Origin: an uncultured virus (IMG/VR IMGVR_UViG_3300009104_000011)
Lineage: Duplodnaviria > Heunggongvirae > Uroviricota > Caudoviricetes
Direction: 5' to 3' (one strand)
DNA length: 64,000 nucleotides
Virus record (IMG/VR): IMGVR_UViG_3300009104_000011
Within the stretch, counting starts at the first letter, position 1. Every line of letters starts with the position of its first letter. Shown here piece by piece: positions 1 to 34,372 of this stretch. A model generated the notes under the pieces. The model was not told where the DNA came from, did no database searches, and worked only from the letters and a program-made list of their open reading frames with translations. The position numbers were made by a program, and so were the translations under genes.

Positions 1-454
1 GATGGCTTAACCGGCCACACGGGTGCATATTTGAAAGCACATCGAGGTAGAACGTATTGGAGGTCTGCAAGCCTCTGCAAAAATGTCGCGAAGGCGACAC
101 CCATAGGCTGATCCAGCCATATCCATAGAGAATAGATTACAACCCGGAAAGACGGGTACTAGATGGAAGTGTTGTGGCGATAGGTGGTCCCTAGAACTAT
201 ACGATACGGAAGTCAACCGGCGGGACACAGGGTAAATTGGTCATTGACAGTGGCCTACTCTGTAGAGCGAACCGCTTCGGTTGGTAACACGGATGTTCCT
301 AGCGGAGCATCTGGTGTGGAGAACTCTTGTCCAAGAAGGCGAATATTGTTTACCAAACATAAACATTGAACTAGCCGACCATGGATACTAAGTTACAGTG
401 GTAGCGCCCGCAAAGCGCTATCAACCTTACGAGGCCCGCCAACCGCCGGTACTA
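1..454 (+). ncRNA. Structured non-coding RNA unit(s), may begin before the window
   Basis: No credible ORF; dense GC-rich hairpins with GNRA/UUCG loops (gtcgcgaaggcgac, accgcttcggttggt); long-range stem accggcgg/ccgccggt closing just before ACTA|G at 451-455. Confidence 0.55.
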
Positions 455-629
455 GAATTAGGTAGAAATGATTCCCTTTAGAGGGATGAAGTTTTATCCG
501 GAATCTTCGGATAACGCTTTTTGGTTCTGACCCCGTTTCGGGTGATGAATTAGATTGAGATAGGTCTACCAAACCTATCAGATTGAGGGGGCATTAGTTG
601 TAAAAAGACTAATGCCCTTAATTTTATTA
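455..629 (+). ncRNA. Small structured RNA unit with box D/C-like motif (CTGA...GTGATGA)
   Basis: Bounded by junction motifs; several hairpins (ttatccg/cggataa, gatagg/cctatc, gggcattagt/actaatgccc); ctga-ccc-cgtttc-ggg-tgatga at ~527-548. Confidence 0.45.
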
Positions 630-630
630 G

Positions 631-768
631 ATGGCAAAAACGAACATCAGCAGCATGGCACAGAGCATAATGGCTCTAAAGAAAGACGTGTATAAGAACA
701 AGCCCGTAGAATTTGCGGGCGGTCTTACACTAAACGTCTCCGTGCGGCAAGGAAATAAGGCAAAGTAA
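631..768 (+). CDS. Small basic hypothetical protein (45 aa, MAKTNISS...)
   Basis: ATG directly after ATTA|G junction; open frame read by hand. Confidence 0.55.
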   Translation: MAKTNISSMAQSIMALKKDVYKNKPVEFAGGLTLNVSVRQGNKAK

Positions 769-881
769 TGTGGAACAATAAGAAATGCCGGTGTAAACGA
801 ATACAATAGAATACAAAAGAATTCATTAGAATCGAATACACTAAAAGTGAAAAAGAGACCCACATATTAGGAGACAAAGAA

Positions 882-1961
882 ATGTTACAAGAAAATGATA
901 ACAAAGATGAAATTGAGGTGATGCGCGAGTTAATCGCAAAGCACCCAAAGGAAGCGAATACCTTCCTTTCACGCAAGAAGTTTTCGTTCAGGGGGAAGAA
1001 ATTCAACCTGGTCGATGTAAGCAAGGCCTTGACCTATATTGATGGGTTCAAGGATGCAATAGGAAAGCGCGGTCGAAAAGACAATCAACTAGTGAAGGCT
1101 CTACGGAGTCTAAGACTTGTTGAAGGTGGTTCGACCCCAATCTTTGTGGTTGAGGAAGGAGGACTTCCCCGCCACAGAGGAAGCAATGGTAAGAACATTA
1201 AGTTTGAACTATTCGTCCCTGACAGCAGGGTTCCTAACTGCTATGAACTAGCAAAAACTCTTGCAGCAGCACCACACTTGCTTAACGGCAAGTTCCTCGT
1301 ACGCTATTTTAGTTACGGAGGATTCGCTGCTAATCCAAGTCTAGTGATCGACTCGATGCAAATTTTAATGAGCAACGGGCTAATCGATCAAGCAGACTTT
1401 GATGCAGTTTTCAAAAACGTATATCCATTCAGACAGGCTGAGTGGGTTGAAGATGAATCATACAGAAATGATTGCATGGAAGGATTTATGGCATTTAGCG
1501 ATAAGCGTGTCCCCGGCTTCCCTAAGAAGGGAAAGAGGACCGAAAAAGACTTCGATTCTTGGTTTGCAACAAAGCCCCAACAACTCTTCGTAATGAGTTG
1601 GGAGGGCGATGTTCGTTCAAACGGGAAAACTTTCGGAGTAAACTTCTCTGTTGAGAAGTCACCGCTGAAGCCAGATGAGGACGGTAGGACTCGATATCAC
1701 GTGGGCAACAAGTCCCTCGGTGATGAGCCTATGAGATCCCAATTCATGCGTCTACCAAAGTGGAGCAATAAGCCTATCAAGCACAAGCGTGGGAGGCGGA
1801 GTAATGTCCGTCCCTTTGCTTTTGCAAAGATGGGTGCTGCACTAAGAAAGAGACTAAGTGAGGGTTCTGCTACTGAGCAGGACCTATCCAAGTCTTTGGA
1901 AGACAGGTATGGTTCCGACGTACTGGAACTGCTAAAGTCAGGCGAAACAATCACTTACTGA
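882..1961 (+). CDS. Hypothetical protein (359 aa)
   Basis: Long ORF, GGAG leader after junction motif. Confidence 0.8.
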   Translation: MLQENDNKDEIEVMRELIAKHPKEANTFLSRKKFSFRGKKFNLVDVSKALTYIDGFKDAIGKRGRKDNQLVKALRSLRLVEGGSTPIFVVEEGGLPRHRGSNGKNIKFELFVPDSRVPNCYELAKTLAAAPHLLNGKFLVRYFSYGGFAANPSLVIDSMQILMSNGLIDQADFDAVFKNVYPFRQAEWVEDESYRNDCMEGFMAFSDKRVPGFPKKGKRTEKDFDSWFATKPQQLFVMSWEGDVRSNGKTFGVNFSVEKSPLKPDEDGRTRYHVGNKSLGDEPMRSQFMRLPKWSNKPIKHKRGRRSNVRPFAFAKMGAALRKRLSEGSATEQDLSKSLEDRYGSDVLELLKSGETITY

Positions 1962-2107
1962 TTGGATCAATTGACTACATAAAGGGACGTAGGCTATAGT
2001 CTGCGTCCCCCATTAGATAAAGAAAGATTCAAAAGAGGCTCTCGGCGTATGCGATTAAACCCCGTATACACCGAGGGCCTCTATTTTTTTACTAGGTGAA
2101 ATAACTT

Positions 2108-2572
2108 ATGTCACATATGATGAAAGGAAAAACCAGTCTAACTGTTGAAAACAGTGACTGCATAGAAGAAGCGTTGAAGGAGGCTATGCCTCAAGCAACA
2201 ATTCTAAAGAACGAGATAGCACAGATTGCACGTAGACCTACGTGCGACTATGTTATCAGGCGAAGTGGACAATATGACATTGGTCTAAAAGCGAAAGAAG
2301 ATGGAACCTATGAGATCCTTGGATACAATCCAGGCTCAGGTGACCGATCGAAAATCGACAAGATCATGTCTCCAGTCTACACTGCCTACGTGAAAGGTGT
2401 AGTCAGAAAGGCTCTGAAAAAGAGCCCGCAGATGGCTGATATGAGGATGGAGGGTGAGGTAAAAGACACCCACATCGACATTAACGGAAAGAAAAAGAAG
2501 GTAAAGCACATCCGCCTAACTGGTGGATATGTTGGTGGATCCAGTGGATCGTCCAGCGGAGGCTGGGTTTGA
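2108..2572 (+). CDS. DUF1257 (Ycf35-like) family protein
   Basis: MSH..KT.L....CIEEALKE start and YDIGLK..DGTYEI motif; next to DUF2997-like gene and AAA ATPase. Confidence 0.7.
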   Translation: MSHMMKGKTSLTVENSDCIEEALKEAMPQATILKNEIAQIARRPTCDYVIRRSGQYDIGLKAKEDGTYEILGYNPGSGDRSKIDKIMSPVYTAYVKGVVRKALKKSPQMADMRMEGEVKDTHIDINGKKKKVKHIRLTGGYVGGSSGSSSGGWV

Positions 2573-2775
2573 TGGCAAAGCAAATTGATATCTATTTCGA
2601 CCCGGAGACGGGCGAGATGACGGTAAAGATTGATGGCCTACCAAACCAGCAATGTGCAGACCTCACAAAGATGCTTCAAAGCAGTCTAGGTATGGCCGAT
2701 GCAAAGGTCACCCAGACCGAAGAAGTCTTTGAGGGCGGCGGCGGAAGCCGCGGCGAATCTGTTCACAGAGGCTGA
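2569..2775 (+). CDS. DUF2997 family protein
   Basis: IDIYFDPETGEMTVKIDG....C.DLTK.LQ..LG pattern; usual partner of DUF1257. Confidence 0.7.
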   Translation: MMAKQIDIYFDPETGEMTVKIDGLPNQQCADLTKMLQSSLGMADAKVTQTEEVFEGGGGSRGESVHRG

Positions 2776-2812
2776 AAAGCCGCAAGTGGAAAGTAACCTT
2801 TCTTTCCTATTA

Positions 2813-3016
2813 GGAAGAGTAACACAAACCTTGCTTGATTTTGTAAAGGTGGTTTGATCGACCATCAAGAGAAAATTTAAGGGGTTATGTGCTTAAAGTG
2901 ATGGGTTTCACACCTCATCGCTTGCAGGCTTCTCTTGACGAATGAGAATAAGGTGCCCTTCCCACACCGGAGGGCGATGCAAAGAGAAATGCTAACTCTT
3001 TGCACGCCTTCCACCA
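2813..3016 (+). ncRNA. Structured RNA unit (~204 nt) with terminal stem and 3' ACCA
   Basis: 5' GGAAG pairs with 3' CTTCC followed by ACCA|G; internal stems tcaagagaa/ttctcttga, tgcaaagag/ctctttgca, gccctt/agggc. Confidence 0.65.
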
Positions 3017-5689
3017 GATAGACATTATGGAATAAGAAGTACTAGTGATATTTGATACCGAGGTATATAACCAATGACGTTATGTTACCATCTAGTGTCG
3101 AATAGTCCACTTTCTAATTGAATAAATTCAAAAGAAAGTGTAAACACAGTAAACACACGAGATGAGAATTAGAAATGCACGGTTACCCTTACAGGGCAAC
3201 CTAAAACACAATTCACATCTAGTAAACACGCTCGTCAATCCTATGGATTGATCGACAACTCTAACACCAGATGGTAACATCGATAAAATATACTAATTTC
3301 CCTAGGCGCCCAGCCTAAGGGAGACTATGGCAACGGTAACCAAAGTGCTGACCAATTTAGCATACTGGATACCCATGGCCAGTGTTAAATTACGATGTTC
3401 TTTTTTGGTTCTATAAGGAGAGGTCCCAAGTAATACACGAGGGGCTCTTCGCGAACCAATAAAATCTGGTTAACAAAAATTTAGAATAAAACCCTGTGTC
3501 CAACAAGACCTGGGGTTGGAATGCATTAAATCGATAAAATAATACTAATCATTTGAATGAGTTCGTGGTGTTGTCCGACTACGTGTCCGACAACTAATCA
3601 CTTCTCAATATAAGCAAAATGAATTATCTTACCCTGGTAACATCAGGGAAGGTAGAAAACATTTGAAAGAACAAATAAGTTAGTTAAAACTGGGACGGAA
3701 CTCAGAAATTACGCTAAATAACACCATATTTATGATGAATATGTTTTGACAAGGCTGTGTGACAACAGTGCTCTAGACACATTAGAAATAAATAAACAAG
3801 GTCCAGTTGGTAAGTTCTCCCTTACCTCTTTTGAGGTAAGAGGAATAACAATCTCTACACAGTGGTGTGGAAGAATACTGGATACCGGTGATGGAAAGAA
3901 ATTGAAGTGGAAAATCTAGAGATGGTGGGTTACCGCCCACAACTCTCGGACGAACCCACATTCTTTACCACGGATAAACGTGGAAAAACCTGAACTGCAG
4001 ACGGTATACCCGGAAACATATGGTTTCTGAGATTATATAAACAAAACAAGAAAACAGTATGGTCAGCCCCTGGTAAAGGGTTAGATTATTCTGATAATGT
4101 AAATAATCTAAAACATAAGATTGCGGTCCTGAGGTGAGGAATTCGTAACCTATGCGGACCCTAATTAGCCACAAATACATTTGCAAAAAGACTTGGAAGA
4201 CACATCCCAAGTGACCCAGAGCATCTGGGAAAGTTGCAACAACTAACGAAATAAAATTTTACGTAACGTGCACGTAACGTGGAGCGGAAGATAAACTAAC
4301 ATCTAATGCCAGGTAAAAGACTTTGAACTTTAACTTGGAGGCGATGTCAGGAACGTCGACCTCCTCACACTGAGTGCGCAAAGATTTGCAAAAGAACATA
4401 CTAAGTTCTTATCTAAATTATACTTTAAAGAGAAAACAAAGAATTCTCTTACCGACGCGCGTCGTAGGTAAGAGCACCAAAAAACAAGAATACTTTGTAA
4501 AAGCATGTTGCTACATTATACACAGCAACAAATAAACCGTTTACCAACCTAGTAAAACTCCTCTAACGAGTTGAGACTAAGGAAACTTACACACTAATAG
4601 TAGAATTACCACACGTGACGAACGGTGGCTAACATTACTAGAGTGGACACACACACACTAAACAAAAACCTACAACTAACAAGGCTACAATATTAAGCCA
4701 AAGTAACCTGTCCAATATTAATGGAAAAAGAGTTACTAGTGTAGTTACTATGCGAGATAAAAAGACAACACAAAGGCAAATCGAACACAAACTCATAAAA
4801 AAGAGTGGACTGCGAGGCTGCCTAGACTTTTTGAACCAGGGTTACATTGCAAACGAAAACATTTAGTTTTTCGCCAGCAGTTACAAACTAATGGAGAACC
4901 AAAAGCACTCCAGAAGTGAAGAAGAGAAAAAGCAATGACAATGACGTCGACGAGAAGTCGAACAAAAAAGAGATACACTCTCAAAGATTTGCTAAGCACG
5001 CGGCACGGCCGCGGATACCATTGCTCTTCCCACTAAAACAAAACAAGAAAGTTTGACAGCAGGACGAAGTCGTCCTCCTCCTGGATACATACTATGTTTT
5101 CCGGGGACCCCTGAAATAGACTTTAGAAAAAACAACTAAAGAAAACAATCTTGCATGCCAGAAGAAGAGTGACTTACACGTCACAAAATTTCTGACATCA
5201 TATCAAAATTAATTGATTACATCATCTAATAGATGATTTACATCATACACATTGACATTGACAACTACAAAAAATGAAGACGGCTACCAAATAGAAAATG
5301 GTAGTCATGAAGACTTTCATTAAAGAAACTACAGTTATAGAAGAATGAATACATTGCCTGGTTAATTAAAGAAGAAAAAAGTAAAAAACACAGGTAGTAT
5401 GACAGCAGATTCGAGCCAATAAGGCTAGAACCATGAGAAGACCACCCATTTGGTGGTCTAATCTATATTTACCAAAAATAAAAAAATATGGAAGTGTAAG
5501 AGACATTGCACCTCCTTACGGGTAATGTAGAACTCGTGTAAACAAATTAGTGCGATACAAGACAGTAATCACTGATTAAATCACTGGCGATAGCAGAACG
5601 AACTACCCCTTAGATCTCTCTAATCGAGAGGTTTAGTAGGGAAGACTCGCGCGCTATCTTTAACCCCACTTCCCATAATGCTGTCACCA
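3017..5689 (+). ncRNA. Very large (~2.67 kb) structured RNA, K-turn family
   Basis: No + strand ORF of 60 aa or more; 5' GATAG-A-CATTATGG pairs with 3' CCATAATG-CTGTC followed by ACCA|G; K-turn at 3058-3079; dozens of hairpins joined by A-rich linkers. Confidence 0.7.
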
Positions 5690-5702
5690 GAGAGAGAAAA
5701 TT

Positions 5703-7430
5703 ATGAAAAATAATAACGAACTTGAAAAAGAATTAAGCATGATGAGTAGAGCAAGTCTACCGTGTCTGGCGGTTTCATCGCCAGAGACTAAGGAGATTGT
5801 AAAGGACATTGTCCAATACGCAGCAACAACTGGAAGCCATGGAGAAACCAATAAAGTACCTCGTGTACTAGTTTGGAGAGTCTCTAGTGGCTTTGAGGAG
5901 TACGCTGCGCACGTGGATGATGAAGACGGAGAAGAACACGTGATAGTCGATGGAATTAGTGAAATCGACTTGACGATGGCTGACATTAGACCCGTAATTG
6001 GGTCTGACGGAAGACCAGTAACTTACGCCGCAGCAGACGAATTCCCTGGAGCAAACGTACCGTTTGCTGTAGATTATATGACCAATTACGATACAAAAGA
6101 AGAAGGCAGAAATGTCATCTTCGTTTTGAGAGATTGGCAACGCTTTATTGATGCCAATGCAGAGCATGTCGATAGGCAACTCGCATTGTTTGAAAACATA
6201 CTTTTAGGGGGAAAGAAGATTATCGTCTTACTTTGCCCTTCAAGGTGGAATGGGGATAATATCCCCGTAGAACTTAACAGCCACATTAGGCTGATTAGGT
6301 ACGATCTACCTGACAAAGAAGACCGAATGGCCTTAATTGAACTGGAGAGACTTAACTTGACCATGGCGAGTGCTATGGGCAAGGACTTCGTTCAGGCTTT
6401 CAAGAACATCACTGAACCTGACATAGAATCCTACGCAGATGCATGCGCTGGGATGACTAGACAGCAAATTCAGGATACCCTAGTAATGTGCGCTGCAACG
6501 CACTTTAATTGGGACATAGATTTCATTCTCGATGAAAAGAGAAAGGCAGTTGAGCAAGCGGGTTTCACCCTGATTCGCCCATCTGCTGGTTTTGAGGTAA
6601 TTGGTGGACTCACGCCCCTAAAGCGCTGGGTCAAACTAATTTCTCGACGGTTCACAAATGCTGCGAAAGATTACGGTTTTATCCGTTTTATTCGTGGACT
6701 TCTAATGGCCGGTGTTCCCGGCTGTGGAAAGACGGCTGTCGCTAAGGCGATGGCTAACGAGATGAACATGAACATACTGATGGTTGAAGCACAGAACCTC
6801 AAAGGCTCACTTGTTGGTGAGTCTGAGGCAAAGGTGCACAGACTATTGGAGATTGCTAAGGCAGCGGCTCCGCTTATCGTCTTCGTTGATGAGGCAGAAA
6901 AGTTGCTTGGTAAGTCAGAGGGACTCCACGATGGAGGCGCTCATGACGCTGTCCTAGGACAGTTTCTAACATTCATGCAGGAAGATGACTCAGGAGTGTT
7001 CTTCGTCTTTACGGCGAATAACATGAATAAGTTCTCGCCGGAACTCGTGGACCGATTTGAAGGTCGATTCTTTATCGACCTGCCCGAACCCGAGGAGCGT
7101 GAGGAGATCATTAAGATTCACCTGCGACTTCGTAATCAAGATGTCAATCGATTTGACATCAACGAACTAGTCAAGAGGACTGCAAAGTTCTCTGGACGAA
7201 ACATCGAGGATGGTATCGAAGAAGCAATGACCGTGTCCTTTAGCGAGGACCGGCCACTTGAAATGCAAGATCTTGTCGAAGTCTTCAAGGTACTGGTTCC
7301 GACCAGTAAAACCAAGAAGGATGAGATTGAACACATGAGATCGTTCGTAGAGAACGGAACCATGCGGAAGGCTAATAACGTGGTTGTGAGGGATAAAACC
7401 CAAAAGCAATCCCGTGTACGGAACTTTTGA
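5703..7430 (+). CDS. Ycf46/SpoVK-like AAA+ ATPase
   Basis: Walker A GVPGCGKT, Walker B IVFVDEAEK, LVGESE pore loop, FTANN sensor, degenerate N-terminal AAA domain. Confidence 0.9.
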   Translation: MKNNNELEKELSMMSRASLPCLAVSSPETKEIVKDIVQYAATTGSHGETNKVPRVLVWRVSSGFEEYAAHVDDEDGEEHVIVDGISEIDLTMADIRPVIGSDGRPVTYAAADEFPGANVPFAVDYMTNYDTKEEGRNVIFVLRDWQRFIDANAEHVDRQLALFENILLGGKKIIVLLCPSRWNGDNIPVELNSHIRLIRYDLPDKEDRMALIELERLNLTMASAMGKDFVQAFKNITEPDIESYADACAGMTRQQIQDTLVMCAATHFNWDIDFILDEKRKAVEQAGFTLIRPSAGFEVIGGLTPLKRWVKLISRRFTNAAKDYGFIRFIRGLLMAGVPGCGKTAVAKAMANEMNMNILMVEAQNLKGSLVGESEAKVHRLLEIAKAAAPLIVFVDEAEKLLGKSEGLHDGGAHDAVLGQFLTFMQEDDSGVFFVFTANNMNKFSPELVDRFEGRFFIDLPEPEEREEIIKIHLRLRNQDVNRFDINELVKRTAKFSGRNIEDGIEEAMTVSFSEDRPLEMQDLVEVFKVLVPTSKTKKDEIEHMRSFVENGTMRKANNVVVRDKTQKQSRVRNF

Positions 7431-7467
7431 AAATTGACCTATAAACGGTCATATTAGAGGAGAAATT

Positions 7468-8115
7468 ATGGCAAAAGAATTTGTAAGAGAAGGACTAAAA
7501 TTTAATGGCAAGAACGATTGGTTTTACTTAACCGATTACTTTGCTGTCCTACATTATTACAGAAGTTTGAGAGAAGAGGAAGAAGACACTGCTTTTCCTC
7601 CTCTAATCCCAAAAAATGATTTCTCAGAAATACCCCAAGACGTCGCAGAAGAAGTTGATTACATAATTGACCATTTGTTAAAGGAGATTGAAACCCTAGG
7701 CTCTAATGCCGGGGATCCAATGACTCAGATAGCACATGGTGAGGTTAATATGATGGGCTTCATGATGCACGATCCGCTATTGAAAAAGGCGATTGGTAAT
7801 GTGGCAATTGAGATATTTATGAGAGATGCAAAAATTACTGAGGATGAAGCATATGAAAAAGCAAAAGCAGAACTGCCAGAATTTATGGCAGATTTTGAAG
7901 ACTTCCTAATGGAAGTTGCTAGTTACTCAATGAGAGAAATCTCAATGAAGGCGGCTAACCACGGTATCAGGATAACTGATGTCAGAGAACTGCTGCAACC
8001 TAAAGTGGCTAGAATAGGCTGGAAGGGTATTAAATTACACTTTGAACAGCCCAGCAAGTCTAGTAAATCTACAGATAAACCTGGTAGAGATACTAGAGAT
8101 ACTATGTTTGGATAA
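7468..8115 (+). CDS. Hypothetical protein
   Basis: 215 aa ORF, GAGGAG leader after junction. Confidence 0.8.
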   Translation: MAKEFVREGLKFNGKNDWFYLTDYFAVLHYYRSLREEEEDTAFPPLIPKNDFSEIPQDVAEEVDYIIDHLLKEIETLGSNAGDPMTQIAHGEVNMMGFMMHDPLLKKAIGNVAIEIFMRDAKITEDEAYEKAKAELPEFMADFEDFLMEVASYSMREISMKAANHGIRITDVRELLQPKVARIGWKGIKLHFEQPSKSSKSTDKPGRDTRDTMFG

Positions 8116-8141
8116 TACTACTCAGTATATTAGAGAGAACA

Positions 8142-8948
8142 ATGGATAAGAAATTAAATATTGAACTAACAAAAGAGGACCTTGAAACTCTTGCTATGAT
8201 GATTCAAGACGGAAAAGTCACCTTGGAGATGTCGCTTTCAGCGAAAGCGATAGAACCAAAGGAAGACCCCGCTCTAATCAAGAGGCAAGAAGAGGAAGAG
8301 GCTCAAAAGTTAAGAGAGAAAGAAGTAGCAGCATATCTATTGCTGCCGGAGAATAAGTTTTGGATAAACTGTTCTTGGAACGAGTGCATGACGCACATGA
8401 CAGGAACCCGAAAAAGGGAAGACGACATTATACTTAGAAAGGGAAAGACTACGGTCGCCTTTGATGAGTTGAACGGCAAAAGCAAGACTAGCCATAAGGC
8501 CGGAAAGCCTTTGGGTAAGAGACAGATGAAACTGGTGAAAGCCTTTAGATCGGAATACGGAGTCTCTGAGAAAGAGATGAAGCAGACCAAGTACATCTAT
8601 GAGAAGGCTGACTTTGACAGTCAAGTCTTTACTCACTTGAAAGAAGCCGTGAATGAAGCAAAGACAAACGGACACAATTCGCTTGTCTATGATAAACTCA
8701 GCGATGCTGAGACAACTTCTGAAAAAATCGGTTCAAAATGGATTAATGCCATAGTAAATAAAATCGTGGATACTCAGGGCAAGCCCCTAGAATTCGATGA
8801 TGAACTACTATACAAAGAGGCAGACATAGTCGTACGTGACTATGTTGCCAAACAACGAGCCGGTCCAAATAAGGACTACTTTATCTCAATTGGTGAAGGA
8901 GTCATATACATCCTAAGTGATGCATATGACGAAATCATCGAAGGCTGA
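8142..8948 (+). CDS. Hypothetical protein
   Basis: 268 aa ORF after junction motif. Confidence 0.8.
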   Translation: MDKKLNIELTKEDLETLAMMIQDGKVTLEMSLSAKAIEPKEDPALIKRQEEEEAQKLREKEVAAYLLLPENKFWINCSWNECMTHMTGTRKREDDIILRKGKTTVAFDELNGKSKTSHKAGKPLGKRQMKLVKAFRSEYGVSEKEMKQTKYIYEKADFDSQVFTHLKEAVNEAKTNGHNSLVYDKLSDAETTSEKIGSKWINAIVNKIVDTQGKPLEFDDELLYKEADIVVRDYVAKQRAGPNKDYFISIGEGVIYILSDAYDEIIEG

Positions 8949-8978
8949 GTGCTTATTGCGCTCTATTAGGAGAGAAAT

Positions 8979-9893
8979 ATGAATAAAAAAGTATTTTCGA
9001 TAGCGCCTAGTTTCGACTGTAAGTTGAAATGCGAGGGATGCTATTTAACCACCGGAGTAACTCAAGATATGAGAGATCTAGTAAGATCAGATTCATACTT
9101 TACAAGGGCTATAGAAAGTGCCTCACGCGAAGGATATACCGAGTTTGCAATAACTTGGAATCCTTTTCCTGGAGCATTTCAAAAGACCAAACAATATGTA
9201 CTATATGCCAAGTCATTAGGCATGGAAACCAGTGTGACAACTGTCATGCAGTGTCTCCATGAGATGGACGAGGTCTTCATTAAGAACTTAGACATATTGA
9301 CCATATCTGTAGACGATATGCGATTCCAAAGTATGTATGAATTTCAGCAGATGAAATACGCTGCATTTCATGCACTTGAGTTAAGGTTCCACAATAACAA
9401 TGAAGAGACTGGTTTTAGTGACCACATATTCTTTAGGAGCCAATTTCCACACTTACAGATTAATTACAATCTGCTGTGGACTCCCGGTGTATTTGAGTGG
9501 CTGTACGAAGATACAGACACATTTAGAGATGCAATTGGAGAAATCCAGTATCCTGATACGATACAGCATCTCATATACAAGCCTCTTTCGATTTACGAAA
9601 GTGAAGAGTGGTTCTGGACTAATTACCAGCGAGTCTTTACTGACTTCGACTGGGTTAATATTGCAGGTAATGGACAAAAGTACATTGGCGATATCGCATT
9701 AAATAATCTCATGGGAGTGAATAACTGCCCTGGTCAAGATTATCAAATGGTTGATGTCGATCCGATGGGCTTTGCCAGACGCTGCCCAGAAAATCCAGAT
9801 GCTTACGATGTCTCTGACATTGGAAAATTATCTGGATTACTCAGAAACGGCACACCGTGCCAGAATAATGCTTGTAACTGCATCACAGGATGA
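8979..9893 (+). CDS. Radical SAM protein
   Basis: CxxxCxxC (CKLKCEGC), LTISVD motif, C-terminal Cys cluster (SPASM/twitch-like). Confidence 0.8.
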   Translation: MNKKVFSIAPSFDCKLKCEGCYLTTGVTQDMRDLVRSDSYFTRAIESASREGYTEFAITWNPFPGAFQKTKQYVLYAKSLGMETSVTTVMQCLHEMDEVFIKNLDILTISVDDMRFQSMYEFQQMKYAAFHALELRFHNNNEETGFSDHIFFRSQFPHLQINYNLLWTPGVFEWLYEDTDTFRDAIGEIQYPDTIQHLIYKPLSIYESEEWFWTNYQRVFTDFDWVNIAGNGQKYIGDIALNNLMGVNNCPGQDYQMVDVDPMGFARRCPENPDAYDVSDIGKLSGLLRNGTPCQNNACNCITG

Positions 9894-9901
9894 TGCTATT
9901 A

Positions 9902-10051
9902 GGGAGAGAGGAGTACTGTACCAAGTTTGTTGGTTTCTTGTTATATTGTCTCTTTGTTCGGCCTAACACGCCGATTTTCATCACAGAGGATCGCTTAAGT
10001 GCTAACGTATACTTGCACAGATAGCCGTCCTCCGGTACTCCCTCCCCACTA
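9902..10051 (+). ncRNA. Structured RNA unit (~150 nt)
   Basis: Terminal stem gggag..ggagtac/gtactcc.ctccc followed by ACTA|G. Confidence 0.65.
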
Positions 10052-10086
10052 GATGAGGAGAGAAGAGACAATAAAAACCAATACTA

Positions 10087-10443
10087 GGGAGAGTTAAACT
10101 GAGACGCAAGTCTATGAAATGACGGCCATCCACTTCGATTACAGTAAGTAACGATTCCGGCTCATACTTGAGCCCGAACGACGCTTGGGTCATCCGACCA
10201 CTGCGCTTTACCGCGCTGACAAGCAGCACGCCAGTAATCGCACGCCCTGGGTTCCCCAGCGCTAACACCGGAGAGCCGTCTCAGACCCATACATCGGGAC
10301 CTTGATCCTTATCATCGGTCCCTTGTCCACGCACACGGCAACAGATTAGGCTCGGCGCCTAATCGAACCTCAATACACCGTGTACTGGCGGTGGCTCGCA
10401 TTCGCGATCCACATGGGCCTGAGAAACTTAGAAACTCCCACTA
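10087..10443 (+). ncRNA. K-turn family RNA
   Basis: GGGAG/CTCCC terminal stem + ACTA; CTGA-GAC-GCAA-GTC-TAT-GA at 10099-10117; many GC-rich hairpins. Confidence 0.7.
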
Positions 10444-10903
10444 GGAAGAGAAAAACTGAGACGAAAGTCTATGACGAACCTCGGCATACATTCACGTAAT
10501 TTCCTCGGTCTATGCAGAAGTTATGGTAGCATTGATATCGTACAGCAATATCCAGGGACCCCCTTGGATATTCGTAGAAGTGCAAATCAATACTCCACAA
10601 CCATCTGTATAGCACAAGGAAGTTACTACAATGTTGCCTCGGCTCTACTCTGTGTTTTTACAATAGGTCAATAGAATCGACCACTCTAGTAACGAATAGG
10701 GCAGACTCCTTAAGGTCTGCAAAAGAGGGCTACGCCCCGACTCACTAGCGCATACGCGCAAGACAACCAAGGTTGTTTGGGGAGTCTACCCGTCTTCGAT
10801 TACTAGAGTCGGTCATTCTATGGCACCTAATGTACCACCTAGACAAACGGTGGATAACACAGCCGCGGAAACCCGCGAATCGTAGAGAACTAGTCTTCCA
10901 CTA
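10444..10903 (+). ncRNA. K-turn family RNA
   Basis: GGAAGA/TCTTCC + ACTA; CTGA-GAC-GAAA-GTC-TAT-GACG at 10456-10476; rod gaccactctagtaacgaa/ttcgattactagagtcggtc. Confidence 0.7.
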
Positions 10904-10911
10904 GATTACTA

Positions 10912-11474
10912 GGAAGAGAAAATAAAACTGAGATAACACAATGACGTTATGTCACCAAGCATCCTCGACGCAAGAAAGCCCGCGCTAGGCATACGCCCTA
11001 CGCGCTATAGGTTATTTGTGTCAACTGAGGATTATGGTGACATTATTTGATGATTACAACTGGCTACAATAATACCGCGATTGGTAAAATTTTGCGGGCT
11101 CTGAGGGCACCTTTCTAGCATGAAATTGCAAGGAAGGGATACGCGATTAGAACTTATGTAGACTGTAACACCATCAAAATCGGTTAAAGTGTCCGAACGA
11201 ACTATTGTAAATTTAATTCACAAGAAATAGATAACGACTAAGAAGACTCACACTACGTGTGATTTTCTTGTCACGAAATACATTTCGATGTTAAATTTGC
11301 AACACTTAGATTCGGACATATTCCACCGATTACGATGGTGTTACAGTAAACATAACTTTAATCACTACCATAGGAGATTACGTATTCACGAAATAACCTA
11401 TTAAAGTGAAGCAGTAGGCGTACCCACTCGGGCGGCGCCTCGCCTTGTAATTTCATGCTAAATTTCTTCCACTA
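10912..11474 (+). ncRNA. K-turn family RNA
   Basis: GGAAGA/TCTTCC + ACTA; CTGA...AATGACG at 10928-10946; long rods (ctgtaacaccatc/gatggtgttacag; tagcatgaaattgcaagg/ccttgtaatttcatgcta). Confidence 0.72.
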
Positions 11475-11818
11475 GGATGGGTTGGGAAACCGAAAACTAA
11501 ATGCGAATTTAATACCGAGATCGAAAGATCAATGACGTTCCGGTGACGTCCATCATACGGATCAGATAGATCCTCCTGATGGCTCATTGGGGAGTACTCC
11601 CCTGAGCATACATGAAGATACGAAATTCGAGCCGCCTTTGGCTAATCGAACGCAAATTGCTATTTCGTACTTCATAGACGCTCAACATTCGTCACCGGTG
11701 ACATTCTGGAACGATGCACATTCGCGCATCTACGAATCATAGATTCGATACCCTCACAACAGACTTTCTGTTGAGAGCGTCCCAGTATGTCACACCCACA
11801 TAGTTTTCCCATCCACTA
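11475..11818 (+). ncRNA. K-turn family RNA
   Basis: GGATGGG/CCCATCC + ACTA; CCGA-GATC-GAAA-GATC-AAT-GACG at 11515-11537; stem ccggtgacg/cgtcaccgg. Confidence 0.72.
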
Positions 11819-12371
11819 GAGAAGTTTTAACACTGAGGTCGAAAGACCAATGACGTTGCGTTGACAAAGATGCGCGCGTTTTCACCATAGAATATCTTCA
11901 CGCCTATAAGAGTGTGAAGCAAGTACCTTACGGTACGATAGACCTGATTACAGTCTAATAATCTATGGTAAAATCGTGCTCCTTCGTCAACGCATTGCAT
12001 GAATGAAGGTTCTAATTCATCATAATGAATAGCCTATTATCAATCTGAAAAACCTCGATTTTGAGGCCTAAACGAAGATTACATTCTGCAACGCGGCATG
12101 ATGACAGATGAGGCAAGCCATTCAGGTCTAAGGACCTTCTGACACGCCTAGGATTTCATAATTTCTATACAGAGCAATCATTCTCACTTAGAGGTGTAAG
12201 CGCATACGCGCAAAGAGAGTCACGTAAACGTTTGACTCTAGCCTTAAGAATGAAAACTCGTATAGCAAACAACGAATTCCTTCAAGACAAAACATAGAAC
12301 TTACACCTCCACGCAAGTGGATTTAAGGTGACGTTCACGTGTCATCATGCCGCAGATGTTACTTCTCAACA
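11819..12371 (+). ncRNA. K-turn family RNA
   Basis: GAGAAGT/ACTTCTC + AACA|GATG; CTGA-GGTC-GAAA-GACC-AAT-GACG at 11833-11855; stems gcgttgac/gtcaacgc, gcggcatgatgaca/tgtcatcatgccgc. Confidence 0.72.
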
Positions 12372-12372
12372 G

Positions 12373-12657
12373 ATGAGTGACAATACATCGATATTTGTAA
12401 GATACAACAAATTAAAAATGGGTTTTGAAGTCGTTCACGCATCATGGGATGCGCAAAACGATAACGAAATTTGGGAAGAAGCAGAAACATTCCAACAGGA
12501 ATGTGCTGCTTTGAAATATGCGGTACAGAAGCACCTGAGTCTTAGGACTAGTGGTGTCTCACCAGAATATGGTATAACACCGCTGTATAATCCTAAAAAC
12601 CTACTACCAAGAGAGCAAAAGACTCTCAATGATTGGTATGAGGAGAAGATACTATGA
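12373..12657 (+). CDS. Hypothetical protein (start revised to MSDNTS)
   Basis: In-frame ATG directly after AACA|G junction. Confidence 0.7.
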   Translation: MSDNTSIFVRYNKLKMGFEVVHASWDAQNDNEIWEEAETFQQECAALKYAVQKHLSLRTSGVSPEYGITPLYNPKNLLPREQKTLNDWYEEKIL

Positions 12658-12848
12658 GTACACAAGAAATTGAACTCGGCCCAAATGAACAAAGAAGAAA
12701 CCGCTTCCAAGATAATTTGTTGGAAGATAGGCACGAAGAAATCGTTGCCTTACTTAAAGAGATTAGAGACGCAATTAACGTCTTCAAAGAATTTATTCTT
12801 GAGGTTACACCTCAGGATGCTAAAGACGACATTGAAGACCTACGTTGA
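12654..12848 (+). CDS. Small acidic hypothetical protein
   Basis: ATGA overlap with upstream gene, GAGGAG SD. Confidence 0.65.
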   Translation: MSTQEIELGPNEQRRNRFQDNLLEDRHEEIVALLKEIRDAINVFKEFILEVTPQDAKDDIEDLR

Positions 12849-12865
12849 AAATAATCTCCTATTAG

Positions 12866-14413
12866 ATGAGAACAATAAATATAATTAACCATAGAAAAGA
12901 AGACACCTTAGCAGCCCGCCCTATTACTCTTGTAAGAGAAGGAAGCGGGGAAAAGGAAATTTATGGAAAAGTTATGGCTATGTTTTTGAAACAAGGTATC
13001 ATGATTGAACGCATGTATTTGCAAGTTAAAGGCAAAGACTTAGCGATTTCAATACTTGGACTAAATGGTAATGTCCTATACTTAGAACTGCACAATTTTA
13101 TTGATGACACCACAGAGTTGCCCTACAAAGGAGATTTTCTTCTTGAGGGGAAATCTGATGGTCCAGCGATTCAGCACATAACTAAAACAGTTGATGCGCT
13201 AAATACTGGAAACAATCAAACTGTGCTAACTTTAGTTAGCCCGCGTGTCCGCGGTGGAAGATATGGAAACATGACTCTAAACGGACAAGGTGTATCAAAC
13301 TACGCTACTGGAGACCTCTTTGTAAACGCAGGGATATCTAGTCTGACAATTCCAATTATTTGGAGTCCTAACAAAGGTAGTTTGATGAACATAAAGGGCT
13401 TAGTAACACATACCGGGAGCAATCAGTCAAATAGTAGCCACAGACGAACATCTGGTGCGCTAACTCAATATTTGAGAAGACTGAAAACCCCAGCAGAAAT
13501 ACCAATAATGTTTCACATAGAACAGTCTGGAAATAACTACGGAACTGGAACAGTTCCCGCAGTTAATCTGATCTGTACACATAACAAGAGTATTGTTAAA
13601 ACGAGTTTACCAAGTAACCTAGATATAGGTAACTTGGCCTTTCTATATCAACTACCAAGAGGAACTATTGGTTCTATAATTGGTAAGGGAAATAAAAAGA
13701 GGCCATTCGGTGAACTTCTTGTTTGCTATGATACTATCCGCTCTGTCGGAGGCGACAAATTAAATGTCGTTTGTAGAACAGTAAACACATCTGTTTCGGA
13801 CGGAACAAAAGAAGATACAACAGTAGAAACCAAGAACCTTGATGACCAAGGTGAGTTGATCTACGAGAATACTAATTTACAAGGTGTATCTTCAATAAGT
13901 TACTCTACTTGGTTTGACATGGTTCAGACCGCAAGAAGTGGCACGCTATCTTTCTCGACATTTACAAATGTCATGGAAGGTGATGTGACGGAGTTATTTG
14001 GCGTTACCAATAATGGAGATATAGTCTATGGTTTGAAAAACAATCAAATGACTGTAATTACAACTATTTCGACATTGGGAAGAGCAATGCAGTTTGAATC
14101 AAAACTGCTAGAGATTCTCCCAGATACCGTTAAAAGGCGAACCAAGAAGGTCGTTAAAACGTATGATGATAAGTTGGTCCAAGCATTGGAAGAAAGAGCA
14201 GAAAAGCCCAGATTACTAAAGCGGCTTAACACGCTCATCGCTAAATTAAATCAAAGTGACTATTACAAGAAATGGAAGGCAGTTTCTGACGCAGAATGCG
14301 AGAGACTAGACCAACCAAAGGAATACGAACTAGAACAAGTATTTCTAATCTACTTGAAAACCACAGAAACAGTAACAATGAAAGACATTGAAGAGTTCAA
14401 CAAACTTAAATGA
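12866..14413 (+). CDS. Hypothetical protein (515 aa)
   Basis: Long ORF starting at ATTA|GATG. Confidence 0.8.
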   Translation: MRTINIINHRKEDTLAARPITLVREGSGEKEIYGKVMAMFLKQGIMIERMYLQVKGKDLAISILGLNGNVLYLELHNFIDDTTELPYKGDFLLEGKSDGPAIQHITKTVDALNTGNNQTVLTLVSPRVRGGRYGNMTLNGQGVSNYATGDLFVNAGISSLTIPIIWSPNKGSLMNIKGLVTHTGSNQSNSSHRRTSGALTQYLRRLKTPAEIPIMFHIEQSGNNYGTGTVPAVNLICTHNKSIVKTSLPSNLDIGNLAFLYQLPRGTIGSIIGKGNKKRPFGELLVCYDTIRSVGGDKLNVVCRTVNTSVSDGTKEDTTVETKNLDDQGELIYENTNLQGVSSISYSTWFDMVQTARSGTLSFSTFTNVMEGDVTELFGVTNNGDIVYGLKNNQMTVITTISTLGRAMQFESKLLEILPDTVKRRTKKVVKTYDDKLVQALEERAEKPRLLKRLNTLIAKLNQSDYYKKWKAVSDAECERLDQPKEYELEQVFLIYLKTTETVTMKDIEEFNKLK

Positions 14414-20750: not shown

Positions 20751-21347
20751 ATGGAAGGGATACCTAACATAAAAATTGTGAAAGTAACATCGTGGATAGC
20801 AATCCCTGCTGATATGCAGGGAGAGGATGTCATAGGAACAGAATGGGCGAACGTCCTTCATGTTACCAGCGAAGACATACTAAGCCCCACGGTAGTTACA
20901 GAAACAGCCCACTTAGACGAACCGGTCTTGGTGGAAGAAACAACAATGACTGAGAAACCGAAAAAGCGCGGACGCCCTAAGGGCAGCAAGAACCGCAAAT
21001 CCAAGACGGCAAAGAGAACCAAGAAAGCGATGAAAGACCTCAAGCAGAACAAGAGAGTCTTTACCGGCGCACTCTATGGTTGGAATGCTACAAAAGATGG
21101 TTCGCTCGTTCCTAACTGGAAAGAGCAGAACAACATCGATTGGATGAAAAAAATGATTGGCCTAGGCCATTCTGCTTCGTGGATAGCCAGAATATTGGCT
21201 AATATGAAAGTCACTGGAAAGAGAGGAGGAAAGTGGAATTCTTCTAGCGTTTTGAGAACGACTAGAAATAAATTTCACTCTACTCGTAATGAAGATGAAG
21301 CACCTAAGTGGTTCAAGAATCAGAAAACTCTCAAGTTGAAAGTATAG
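20751..21347 (+). CDS. Protein with AT-hook and recombinase-type DNA-binding domain, no catalytic domain seen
   Basis: KKRGRPKG; LYGW...IARIL....GKRGGKWNSSSV resembles the DNA-binding domain of large serine recombinases. Confidence 0.65.
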   Translation: MEGIPNIKIVKVTSWIAIPADMQGEDVIGTEWANVLHVTSEDILSPTVVTETAHLDEPVLVEETTMTEKPKKRGRPKGSKNRKSKTAKRTKKAMKDLKQNKRVFTGALYGWNATKDGSLVPNWKEQNNIDWMKKMIGLGHSASWIARILANMKVTGKRGGKWNSSSVLRTTRNKFHSTRNEDEAPKWFKNQKTLKLKV

Positions 21348-24167: not shown

Positions 24168-24185
24168 GGCTAATGCCTCATATTA

Positions 24186-24577
24186 GATACGAACTTATTC
24201 ACTACCGATTAGCCCTACCACGTGATAGGCTCTGATCCGATGTGATGTATCGCATAGGCCTCTGCATTTGGCAGCAAATTGCGCAGAACCCACCCTATGC
24301 AGCAAAACCGGATTCTTAACTAATATTCAAAAAAAAATTGAATATAGCCAGAATCAAAAACCACCCGGTAGTGTGGTATTAAAATAAAAATGAGCAGGTA
24401 AAATCACGCTAAAAAAGAGCGGAGGACCTGTTGTCTCTTGATTGTAAATATGACAGAGATGGAATACTGACTGTGCTTAGTCTAACGACGTATTCCCGCG
24501 GCCTTTCATGGCCTTCAAAATAAATTAATTTATCTTGATGGAAAAAAACATAATTCGTTGCATAAAAAGCAACATTA
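24186..24577 (+). ncRNA. Non-coding unit between two junction motifs
   Basis: No ORF; hairpins (agcccta/taggct, tatattcaa/ttgaatata, ctgttgtc/gacag); ends gttgc-ataaaaa-gcaac-ATTA|G. Confidence 0.45.
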
Positions 24578-25338
24578 GAGAGTATACAATCTGAGGTCGA
24601 AAGACCAATGACGTAAGCCGAAAATTAAGCAAACTTGTTTGCAACGATTGAGACTATGCTGCGCAAAGACGCTGCGCTTCTCAATTTGCTGCACTCGTTC
24701 ACTTAACGGCTCATCCTACGGACAAGCACTTCAGAGTCACAACTCTGAAGCATTACCCTAACATCCCTACCACCTTGCGGCTCCGCTGCGGTGCTAACGG
24801 GAGGTAACGGGCACGCAAAGAGTAGATTGCGCAGCGCGCGATCTACTCGGTGCTAATCCTACGGAACAACATCTCAAAAACGAGAACGATTAAGTTTCGC
24901 CTTTGCTGGTTAACGCTGCGCGTGTGACCTGCGGTCACAAACCAACTGCGACGAAATGCACTGCGTTACTTAATCAACGGATCGAAGATCCTCGTTCTAC
25001 GTTTTGTTGCATGTTTGAGCCTATTTATCGCCTACACAACCAGACCTACGGTCATAGACTTGGCAGCCCAAGCGCTGCAGACTCATGGTTGTGAAAGGCT
25101 TCGGCTCCTCGGAACACTGCGGCTTTTAAGTCGCAAACTGATGACCTTGCGCCAACGGACTGCGCTATTTCATACTAAAATGAAATTTGCTACGCAATCG
25201 CTAGTCCTGCGAGTCAATCAACCACGAACGCCTCTACGAGGCTTGCTCATTTCACGAGCACATTATTGATTGGCCCTCGCGGCTTGGCTCAACCGGTTCA
25301 TCGCCAAGTTCCTCGGAAACTTAATCTTACTCTCACTA
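24578..25338 (+). ncRNA. K-turn family RNA (~760 nt)
   Basis: GAGAGTA/TACTCTC + ACTA; CTGA-GGTC-GAAA-GACC-AAT-GACG at 24591-24613 (identical to 11833 copy); many hairpins (cttcagagt/actctgaag, gagtagat/atctactc). Confidence 0.72.
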
Positions 25339-25765: not shown

Positions 25766-25783
25766 TTTGTCTGTCTCTTATTA

Positions 25784-26439
25784 GAGAGTTCTTACACTGA
25801 GGCCACAAGCCTATGACGTTTAAGTAACCACGTCTAAAGAACCGCATTAGGTTCTGAGACGCTACGCTATCCGACCTACATAAACAACCGTTCTAAAGTC
25901 CATCGCGGAAATCCGCGAAAGGTATTGGCAAATGAATTACCAATACAGTTGCATTCGCAACGCCGGAGAACGACTTTTGTGGGCAATTGCCCAGTCGTCC
26001 TTGTCCGGTCGAGTGATGGAAAAGAACGATGTTCAGGTAGATAGTACTGCGCATAAAGCGCAAGCAGACGAACATTGGTCAATAAATTGACCGCCGTTCG
26101 GAAACGGCTCTGCAGAGCATTAGATTTGCAACAGCATTACGACAATGGTAGTGCCACGAGGAACAATAGGAGCAGAAAGAATTTGACAATCAAAGATTGA
26201 GCGTGATTCCACGCTTGTCTAAATCAACCGGCCTACGGCCACAGGTTGATTCTTAACGACTCAAATTAATACTGGTCCATAATGTTCCACAGGCACCCTC
26301 CTCTGTCGTAACACTTGTAACGCACGTTAGATAAAGCAGCATTAGACTGCATTATAGTGAAGCGAATCAGATGATTCCAATAGGATGGGACCAAGTTCCC
26401 ATCTTAGCAGAGAAACTTAAAAACTAGATCTCTCAACTA
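25784..26439 (+). ncRNA. K-turn family RNA (~656 nt)
   Basis: GAGAG/CTCTC + (A)ACTA; CTGA-GGC-cacaa-GCC-TAT-GACG at 25797-25818; hairpins ggtcaat/attgacc, gccgtt/aacggc. Confidence 0.68.
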
Positions 26440-26440
26440 G

Positions 26441-26584
26441 ATGGAAGTAAGCAGCATAATTATGACTGTATTTACATACACCCTTGTCGGTCTTGGTTTT
26501 GCGTGTGGATTTGAAATATTTCGCCGCATAAAAGCAAGAATGAACAAAGGAAAGAACTCACAGCGAAACCAAAGATGGCTGTGA
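26441..26584 (+). CDS. Micro membrane protein (47 aa, MEVSSIIMTVF...)
   Basis: ATG at ACTA|G; hydrophobic N-terminus, basic tail; stop within next hairpin. Confidence 0.55.
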   Translation: MEVSSIIMTVFTYTLVGLGFACGFEIFRRIKARMNKGKNSQRNQRWL

Positions 26585-26592
26585 GTCTATTA

Positions 26593-26721
26593 GATAGGAC
26601 CAAGACTATTGACCGCTAGCGTTGTGTTAGTTTTATTTCTTGGTATGATCAAGGACTAATACAACCGTGTAGGTCGGTATTGGGGGGAAACCTATCTGAC
26701 AGTCGGGAAAGACCGGCACTA
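26593..26721 (+). ncRNA. Small non-coding unit ending in CCG-GAAAGA-CGG type hairpin
   Basis: Bounded by junctions; gtcgggaaagaccggc + ACTA|G. Confidence 0.45.
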
Positions 26722-27108
26722 GGAGAGATAATTAAACCGAGGTGAAAGCCTATGACGTACTCTTGCTAAAGTACACAGACATTCACAGACGAACATAAAG
26801 TGAAACGCAGATGTGGTGCATGCGCACCTTATCGCGAGATTAGCGATTATAACCTTCTGTGCAAATCTGGGTATTTATCAAGAGGTATCCGATCGCATGC
26901 GAGTGTGACGGTATCACTTCAAAACAAAAAGAACGCATATGCGTTTGCTTCTAATTCTTATGGGAGTTTTACACACAAGCGAAGGGCAACTAATAGGCTA
27001 TGCATTTAGTAAAGCCGTAGCCCACTCGCTGGTGTAAAGCCCCATATCATATTAGTTTAACAGTGCAGTAAACTGCATTTGTTTTGAAAATTAGTTTACT
27101 CTCCACTA
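26722..27108 (+). ncRNA. K-turn family RNA (~387 nt)
   Basis: GGAGAG/CTCTCC + ACTA|GATG; CCGA-GGT-GAAA-GCC-TAT-GACG at 26737-26757; stem gcgagtg/cactcgc. Confidence 0.72.
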
Positions 27109-27109
27109 G

Positions 27110-34351: not shown

Positions 34352-34372
34352 GGGTAACACCTCTTCTATTAG

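Follow-up and report, generated by a model that had tools for sequence, protein, structure and literature searches.

Positions 3017 to 5689 of a 64,000-nucleotide stretch of DNA from an uncultured virus (IMG/VR record IMGVR_UViG_3300009104_000011; the whole stretch is called the window below) probably encode a discrete long non-coding RNA (ncRNA) that is paired end to end, headed by a kink-turn (K-turn), and built of a core of about 0.5 kb with hypervariable expansions. The window belongs to an uncultivated marine archaeal virus-like element, and the unit lies directly upstream of its gene for an AAA+ ATPase (the AAA gene). The original prediction, made from the window alone, had read these positions as a giant structured ncRNA without a long open reading frame (ORF). 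Its claim of a discrete non-coding unit is supported, for the + strand, by covariation of the terminal helix across related elements, which were collected by a profile search with the AAA protein; this search yielded 61 metagenome loci with flanks, the closest of which (L032) encodes an AAA protein 88% identical to that of the window.

The predicted 13-bp pairing of ends that lie 2.67 kb apart is borne out, with one bulge and one G-U pair. The segment G3017-G3030 pairs with C5673-C5685 through 13 base pairs that include the G-U and leave one bulged A, and the unpaired ACCA of 5686-5689 follows; the predicted coordinates fit exactly, 3017 being G1 and 5689 the final A of this ACCA. Of 18 related marine metagenome loci with a unit upstream of the AAA gene, 16 have the helix in this same register, in units of 523 to 2673 nt. 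The first nucleotide of each unit is the G of a mark of the form ...YYA^G (the caret shows the boundary), and the first 6-13 nt pair with a stretch whose 3' end lies 3-4 nt short of the next A^G, which sits just before the leader of the AAA gene. The 5' end is thus flush and the 3' end overhangs, as in the acceptor end of a tRNA; the overhang is ACCA in 10 of the 16 units, AUCA in 1 and GUA, GUUA or AUA in 5. Three unrelated helix sequences share this register (GAUAGAYAUUAUGG with CCAUAAUGCUGUC, GGUGAGUU with AACUCACC, and GAACAGUUUUAU with AUAAGGCUGUUC), and in locus L033 both sides are altered, GAUAGAUGU being paired with ACAUCUAUC, so that homologs do show the covariation that had been proposed as a check of the end-to-end stem. 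The helices include G-U pairs on the + strand, and no bulge-helix-bulge motif is visible in the helix of the unit. When boundaries were set solely by the motif CAC[CT]AG with a K-turn after it, at least 5 bp formed at the fixed register in 13 of 28 units, as against 5.2% of 10304 non-cognate pairs, even though a false internal site was sometimes taken for the "next motif".

The predicted K-turn is also present, 41 nt from the 5' end, and is supported by family statistics. The hairpin follows the pattern CYGA-[3-6 bp stem, short loop]-WAU-GA-CG, which occurs on the + strand of the window at 3058, 10456, 11515, 11833, 24591, 25797 and 26737, with near variants at 10099 and 10928; all of these lie in ORF-poor stretches. 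Most relatives likewise carry the hairpin at the head of the AAA-upstream unit. The family was tested by fixing the flanks and leaving the interior free, with shuffles of the interior as the null. Among 209 + strand candidates found with a loose pattern, 68 can form a stem of at least 3 bp (null mean 8.7, maximum 17), as compared with 2 of 28 on the - strand. The stems and loops occur in 37 variants, with loops that are mainly GNRA or UUCG, and the canonical (C) stem beside the bulge is therefore kept by compensatory change; the CYGA and WAU-GA-CG strands, which would form the tandem G-A/A-G pairs of a K-turn, are invariant in all units found. A pattern with a GAAA loop was absent from all 401 genomes of the candidate host order, and the K-turn pattern gave 36 matches in IMG/VR, just 4 of them able to pair, which is the chance level. 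The RNA thus looks specific to this family of elements, and there is strong evidence for a K-turn that would act at the RNA level, on one strand, and that would be private to the family.

The kinship that had been suggested between the unit and a second one near 10912 also stands: positions 3072-3090 and 10939-10957 are 95% identical over 19 nt, and the K-turn units at 10-12 kb are relatives of this one. The block at 9966-12374 is a second ORF-poor region, where about five units headed by K-turns follow one another in tandem (starts near 10088, 10444, 10912, 11475 and 11819), each bounded by marks of the CCACTA^G type and several with terminal helices of 5-7 bp. Further ORF-poor stretches, with the K-turn hairpins at 24591, 25797 and 26737, lie at 24168-25014 and 25766-27109; one unit (26722-27109), closed by a 6-bp terminal helix, runs as far as the start mark of a primase-like gene.

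Comparison with L032 divides the unit into parts with very different rates of change. In a global alignment, 2776-3258 is 79-93% identical and 5571-5670 is 96% identical; for 2776-3258 and 5571-5702 taken together the range is 79-96%. The 5' part forms a domain enclosed by P1, a 17-nt long-range helix (atgttaccatct with agatggtaacat, 94% complementary), within which the sequence of the inner helices varies among orthologs while their pairing is retained. Its four single-stranded (U)AAACAC motifs start at 3141, 3150, 3204 and 3223, and distant lineages have AGACGC or AUACGC in their place. Of 59 K-turn units, 22 have a P1 that outperforms every one of 40 shuffles, and most of the tested AAA-upstream orthologs are among these 22; several other K-turn units have no comparable P1. 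From a MAFFT alignment of the 5' domain, RNAalifold retrieved the C stem and P1 and nothing more, and from the 3' domain a single invariant hairpin. The 3' domain contains ATCACTG repeats and a GGGAAG...CUUCCC hairpin in addition to the 3' strand of the terminal helix and the ACCA overhang. Between these domains lie small conserved islands whose position is not fixed: the one at 3292-3378 adjoins the 5' domain here and is found 200-430 nt upstream of the AAA gene in five relatives (L037, L038, L039, L040 and L086), and one at 3547-3624 likewise differs in order among relatives. These differing positions show that the variable DNA sits at two or more sites of a conserved core, in the manner of expansion segments. 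The core comprises about 0.5 kb, made up of the 5' K-turn domain, one island and the 3' domain. Immediately upstream of the unit is a separate structured RNA (RNA-A), which is 87-93% identical to its counterpart in L032, lacks a K-turn and has the invariant sequence AACACAAA in its 5' region; for an alignment of 7 loci (A5), RNAalifold gives 42 pairs, 28 of them with compensatory changes.

The body of the unit is of a different nature. Apart from two islands, 3290-5560 cannot be aligned with L032 (about 35-45% identity, and about 22-66% per 100 columns), and the small islands that the body has in common with relatives lie at 3394-3491, 3547-3624 and 3923-4053. The middle of the L032 unit falls in the same length class, has the same A content (0.385) and shows a similar two-fold excess of hairpins, with a different sequence. 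Because the middle 2.2 kb cannot be aligned with even the closest relative, and because homologous units are as short as 523 nt, only about 0.5 kb can be regarded as conserved core, and a reading of the unit as one conserved fold of 2.67 kb is not supported. The hairpins that had been named are present, both the P1 strands and those of the body (cttacctc/gaggtaag at 3821-3840 and ctcttac.../...gtaagag at 4446-4474), and 3290-5570 has 32 stems of at least 6 bp, compared with 15.9 +/- 3.3 in shuffles. Weak internal duplications with a spacing of about 600 nt suggest that the body may have grown by duplication. An antisense role against the host was considered and rejected, the body giving 6 chance-level matches (E 6e-4 to 9e-3) against 301 genomes of the candidate host order.

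The region had also been described as free of long ORFs, and no credible ORF was found in 3017-5689 under four genetic codes. The gap was measured from the stop at 2775 to the AAA start at 5703; in 2776-5702, the longest table-11 ORF of the - strand (3965-4210) has 81 amino acids (aa) and that of the + strand has 57 aa. None of the alternative codes yields a credible gene: the maximum is 94 aa when TAG is read as Q and 100 aa under code 4, with three TGA codons read through, and reading TAA as Q gives one 235-aa frame on the - strand that requires five read-throughs. A 29-aa ORF at 3327-3416, in a context resembling a Shine-Dalgarno (SD) sequence, was rejected because its ATG is missing in 3 of 6 aligned sequences; one sequence has an in-frame stop. 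The ORFs of at least 100 aa in the gaps of relatives look random and overlap on both strands. A tblastx comparison with the 61 related loci gave just all-frame, nucleotide-level matches in the conserved ends and none in 4053-5520; there is no frame-specific signal, and so no sign of a dead gene. Ahead of the AAA gene, more distant relatives also keep 0.76-3.1 kb free of genes. The features of the region are collected in Table 1.

Table 1. Coordinates of the candidate ncRNA unit, its parts and adjoining features (positions in the window).
Feature	Position	Strand	Basis or description
Whole unit, candidate long ncRNA, 2673 nt	3017-5689	+	CACCA^G marks on both sides, fixed-register terminal helix, no ORF, no tblastx signal
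5' strand of terminal helix, GAUAG-A-CAUUAUGG	3017-3030	+	
K-turn hairpin: CCGA / GGU-AUAUA-ACC / AAU bulge / GA-CG	3058-3079	+	Family test, 37 stem/loop variants
P1-enclosed 5' domain	3082-3280	+	P1 3082-3098 / 3264-3280; inner helices; four (U)AAACAC motifs
Conserved island	3292-3378	+	Alignment A3, 71% mean column identity
Hypervariable body (expansion segments), A-rich hairpin array	3380-5560	+	
Conserved 3' domain	5571-5689	+	96% identical to L032; motifs conserved in 7 loci
RNA-A, separate structured RNA	2813-3016	+	From G after CCTATTA^G to ...CCACCA
Purine-rich leader of AAA gene	5690-5702	+	Leader conservation, SD-like
AAA+ ATPase gene	5703-7430	+	Pfam PF00004, E 1.7e-28; downstream of unit in all relatives
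tRNA-Lys(CUU), encoded CCA	38161-38237		4 nt after one start mark, 7 nt before the next

Public RNA libraries provide a further line of evidence. Part of the stretch is present in twenty public runs, of which seven carry an RNA label, and four RNA-library runs from three studies were compared with positions 1-14000. Contigs of these runs match 3509-3692, 3748-3987 and 3985-4280, the last bridging this whole interval (X7), 3747-4256 (X10), 4203-4342 and 4372-4539 (X14), and 4612-5621 (X11). The last of these is a variant that differs by 22 substitutions and 21 gaps over 995 nt (about 4%), and none of its gaps comes in multiples that would point to a reading frame. RNA-library contigs of three studies thus cover 3509-4539 and 4612-5621. 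No contig of the four runs falls on 9341-12142 or on several of the genes, and contigs of this kind cannot show absence. A contig from a polyA-selected library ends at 4256 after AATAAAA, followed by 13 A residues that are not in the genome; this end may be a tail, or may result from mispriming of oligo-dT on the A-rich AAUAAAA.

Folding statistics had been proposed as a check, and their result is mixed. The region does fold better than shuffles, with a mean z-score of -2.63 on the + strand in sliding windows over 2776-5702 and 25 of 38 windows below -2, but it is not distinctive in this respect from the AAA-coding flank, where the mean is -2.17 and 19 of 38 windows lie below -2. Since the thermodynamic tests are passed without discriminating, the argument depends on covariation, strand-specific motifs and register. 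On the + strand, the coding sequence of 5703-8700 also exceeds its dinucleotide shuffles in folding by a wide margin (the mean z of -2.17 just given), which reflects either pervasive mRNA structure in this element or a patchiness of composition that biases such tests.

A number of observations weigh against the interpretation of the region as a discrete, end-paired RNA. High folding z-scores and an excess of hairpins are also found in coding flanks, and the - strand of the 5' domain folds better (z -6.48) than the + strand (z -4.49). The 8-bp perfect core of the window's terminal helix is marginal when taken alone (p 0.077, 300 shuffles); single terminal helices are weak against shuffles, with p from 0.0 to 0.93, and a duplex-energy test failed to distinguish cognate arms (-21.4 kcal/mol) from non-cognate ones (-19.6 kcal/mol). 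A third lineage is without ACCA, which weakens the analogy with the end of a tRNA. No 5-mer is jointly enriched across seven variable bodies. The RNA data are assembled contigs that are uninformative on strand, ends and level and could include DNA carry-over, and the runs were chosen for containing this stretch. Finally, it is from sequence that we infer both binding by L7Ae and cleavage at the A^G marks. Register and phylogeny nevertheless rescue the end-to-end stem, weak as it is when taken alone.

The marks that delimit the unit resemble signals found throughout the window. Between 7 and 40 kb, the majority of + strand genes open with either hairpin-(U)AUUAG^AUG or ...UUAG^GAGAGAAAnn-AUG, and a hairpin of at least 5 bp ends 2-7 nt before the YAG mark at 28 of 41 gene starts, compared with 305 of 918 control YAG sites. 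This start mark occurs between 7458 and 39539 (for example at 35411-35422, 37787-37798 and 12857-12868) and consists of a variable hairpin and (C)TATTAG or CCACTAG, after which comes either ATG directly or a purine-rich, SD-like leader of 10-14 nt; the stop codon of the upstream gene is frequently inside the hairpin. The variable hairpin occupies the place of an archaeal TATA box, which suggests that long precursors would be processed at the marks rather than that each gene has its own promoter, although the mark could alternatively be a novel start signal. With its flush 5' G, the C that pairs with this G and the 3' ACCA, the unit is reminiscent of a tRNA acceptor end, and a guess on this basis, one weakened by the lineage without CCA, is that the cutting enzyme might be RNase P or an RNase Z-like enzyme. 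The region 38413-40061 contains four to six repeats, each with a hairpin GCCTC...GAGGC, TATTAG and then ATGAGTAACGAAAGTG, that resemble the starts of paralogous small genes (38449, 39027 and 39539).

A scheme that would connect these features begins with transcription of the + strand as long precursors, which would be cut at the A^G marks. The released RNA would be kept closed by its terminal helix, and host L7Ae would bind the K-turn; binding of the unit RNA by L7Ae is probable, and a Candidatus Thalassarchaeum genome, from the candidate host order, encodes two L7Ae-family proteins. The resulting stable ribonucleoprotein (RNP) would act via the conserved core, probably by binding protein through the repeated (U)AAACAC motifs, and the body would consist of tolerated or diversifying expansion segments. 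A role of the body as a sponge was considered and is unsupported because its k-mers show no common enrichment: no 5-mer is shared in enriched form, and the complements of the core motifs, GUGUUU and GCGUCU, are not enriched. We have much less confidence in this mode of action, that of a punctuation-released, L7Ae-bound RNP acting through its core, than in the anatomy of the unit. A broader version, which we regard as less likely than not, is that precursors punctuated by acceptor-stem-like signals (a helix plus NYYA^G) might release, among other products, a new class of giant ncRNAs (0.5-2.7 kb) with tRNA-like ends and a K-turn cap bound by L7Ae, matured by the tRNA-processing machinery of the host; their expansions would serve as decoys or as scaffolds in the conflict of virus and host and would be diversified by selection.

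Other explanations of the region start from the same observations. The stretch could be a very long 5' leader of the AAA+ ATPase mRNA, with the helix bringing the K-turn and L7Ae near the ribosome-binding site and thereby controlling translation. The unit is always directly upstream of the AAA gene, the 3' strand of its helix ends 17 nt before the ATG, just ahead of the SD-like leader, and there is archaeal precedent for translation control through L7Ae and K-turns (PMC5539422, PMC6298567). This explanation is nonetheless rather unlikely, given that the K-turn lies 2.6 kb from the start codon, that other K-turn units of the window are not beside the AAA gene, and that the A^G marks at 10444, 11475 and 11819 separate units that are followed by non-coding units and not by genes. 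A function in DNA, in which the pairing would belong to a recombination hot spot, to an exchangeable cassette with inverted repeats or to a replication origin, would account for the conserved inverted arms around a wholly different segment in genomes whose flanks are about 90% identical, and for the varying order of modules among relatives; a recombinase-like gene is also present at 20751-21347. Such a function is improbable, since the G-U type pairs of the arms would be mismatches on the other strand, and the one-strand K-turn consensus, with its GNRA and UUCG loops, is a signature of RNA. Furthermore, the cumulative GC skew has no turn at 3-6 kb, there are no iterons or repeated boxes, and the body is covered by RNA-library contigs.

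The two remaining explanations concern the body, and they differ in opposite directions from the view of a small core with expansions. The body might be decaying or junk DNA that lies, functionless, between two small functional RNAs, as its extreme divergence, its want of a shared enriched k-mer and the failure of its host-order matches (6 of 301 genomes, E 6e-4 to 9e-3) to go beyond chance could suggest. We consider this quite improbable. The tblastx comparison gave no trace of protein coding, and RNA-library contigs lie over the body; moreover, the unrelated bodies of the window and L032 share the same A-rich composition (0.385) and about the same two-fold excess of hairpins, and the five closest relatives with full upstream sequence all retain a gene-free stretch of 2-3 kb in a genome that is otherwise gene-dense. 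At the other extreme, the entire 2.67 kb might form one conserved giant architecture, a scaffold or ribozyme comparable to rRNA, GOLLD or ROOL, and here the end-to-end stem is real and the whole stretch is richer in hairpins than its shuffles, with z below -2 in 25 of 38 windows. This is the least probable of the explanations, and only a slight chance is left to it by the unalignable 3290-5560, the homologous units as short as 523 nt, z-scores equal to those of coding sequence and the lack of any match to an Rfam family. With Rfam 15 at the gathering threshold, the only match in the whole window is tRNA-Lys; with E up to 10, 2500-5900 gives 7 weak matches (best E 0.089), none of them to rRNA, introns, GOLLD or ROOL. 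Kinship with rRNA, group I or II introns, GOLLD or ROOL, whose models had been proposed as a check, thus found no support at either setting.

The predicted end-paired RNA shares single features with several known systems. It resembles the K-turns bound by archaeal L7Ae (in box C/D and H/ACA sRNAs, RNase P RNA and the L7Ae mRNA leader) in its tandem G-A/A-G positions, 3-nt bulge, covarying Watson-Crick C stem, G-C at 4b-4n, and box C/D-like CUGA and (R)UGA-type strands. Here, however, the C stem is capped by its own tetraloop, the motif heads an RNA of 0.5-2.7 kb, 3b-3n is C-Y and not U-U, and there is neither C/D guide architecture nor an ACA box. Consistent with this, no Rfam C/D family matched at the gathering score (best E 0.32, on the - strand) and no RUGAUGA was found upstream of the CUGA. 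With respect to H/ACA sRNAs, the K-turn is 5' of P1 and not inside it, and 7 orthologs show no conserved ACA after the 3' strand of P1. A hammerhead ribozyme is not indicated, in that CUGA directly precedes the capped stem, GAAA is the loop of that stem, and no Rfam ribozyme matched.

tRNA-like or tRNA-punctuated processing is familiar from the punctuation model of mitochondria and from MALAT1 mascRNA. The predicted ends of the unit are like a tRNA acceptor end in the 5' G-C pair (G1-C), the flush 5' end and the 3' ACCA (10 of 16 units); the unit differs in having a helix of 6-13 bp instead of 7 and, in one lineage, GUA or AUA instead of ACCA, and ARAGORN calls no tRNA in it. As in tRNA-punctuated transcripts, units meet one another and the genes at one putative cut site, and the same marks enclose a true tRNA; here, however, the mRNA starts carry their helix upstream of the putative cut and not downstream. 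In rRNA, processing stems pair the flanks of a kilobase-sized RNA, and expansion segments are insertions of variable length in a conserved core. The unit likewise has a long-range flank helix and a core with variable insertions at more than one site, with no match to an rRNA model. GOLLD and ROOL are also large, gene-free structured RNAs, and the unit too is carried by a virus-like element of a prokaryote, but it differs in its archaeal host side, its K-turn, its paired termini, and a small core with hypervariable expansions in place of a large conserved fold. Large structured ncRNAs are rare, and to our knowledge none is known for archaeal viruses. The portions of the literature that were searched turned up no large structured ncRNA of archaeal viruses, and ncRNA is not mentioned in the available parts of the magrovirus and Poseidoniales virus papers. 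A Red Sea mdRNA-Seq study (PMC5069720) describes Tan1, an abundant 229-nt ncRNA on metagenome contigs of Candidatus Thalassoarchaea; by this description, Tan1 shares the marine group II context, metatranscriptome abundance and a complex predicted structure, and its size is near that of the 5' domain or RNA-A. An RNA with paired, tRNA-acceptor-like ends, a small core and a fast-changing middle appears not to have been described previously.

The remainder of the window is gene-dense, with nearly all genes on the + strand and a GC content of about 0.42. Pfam matches among its proteins include the AAA+ ATPase, an ATP-dependent DNA ligase, two primase small-subunit-like proteins, RNase H, RusA, a class II-like ribonucleotide reductase (RNR), MCM, a TFB/TFIIB homologue and a weaker second one; the majority of the proteins have no match in Pfam or PHROGs. 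The TFB core scores 177 bits against a solved archaeal TFB core, compared with about 102 bits against the human core, and a eukaryotic host was set aside because the protein is closest to the archaeal one. The genes for the TFB nearest archaeal TFB and for the weaker TFB/ORC6-like protein are at 45157-46104 and 47657-48589, adjoining a minus-strand block (40585-44496) with MCM and primase. At 34368-34697, a 147-nt direct repeat, 84% identical, corresponds to adjacent NikA-like ribbon-helix-helix genes (34373-34546 and 34556-34717).

Relatives of the MCM and AAA proteins were found in marine metagenome data only, on contigs of up to about 135-143 kb. An MCM profile search of IMG/VR gave a best identity of 27% and no nearer relative of the lineage, a scan of viral contigs with the single AAA and MCM proteins found no relative, and blastn against phage records gave no match. 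A 531-aa protein of the window resembles viral clusters (score 0.94), and this lead to viral clusters was all that searches of a protein atlas, PDB and phage tblastn yielded for the large uncharacterised proteins. One AAA relative (45%) lies on a small contig binned with a metagenome-assembled genome of Candidatus Thalassarchaeum, which is weak evidence that the host could belong to the Poseidoniales.

The family of RNAs to which this unit belongs has clear comparative support, in the form of its K-turn, covarying helices, paired termini with a tRNA-like 3' end, and a core that tolerates kilobase-scale expansions. Its source is a group of abundant marine elements that are probably linked to the Poseidoniales. 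Within these elements, the genome-wide mark made up of a hairpin and AUUA^G points to punctuation at the RNA level or to an unusual archaeal start signal.

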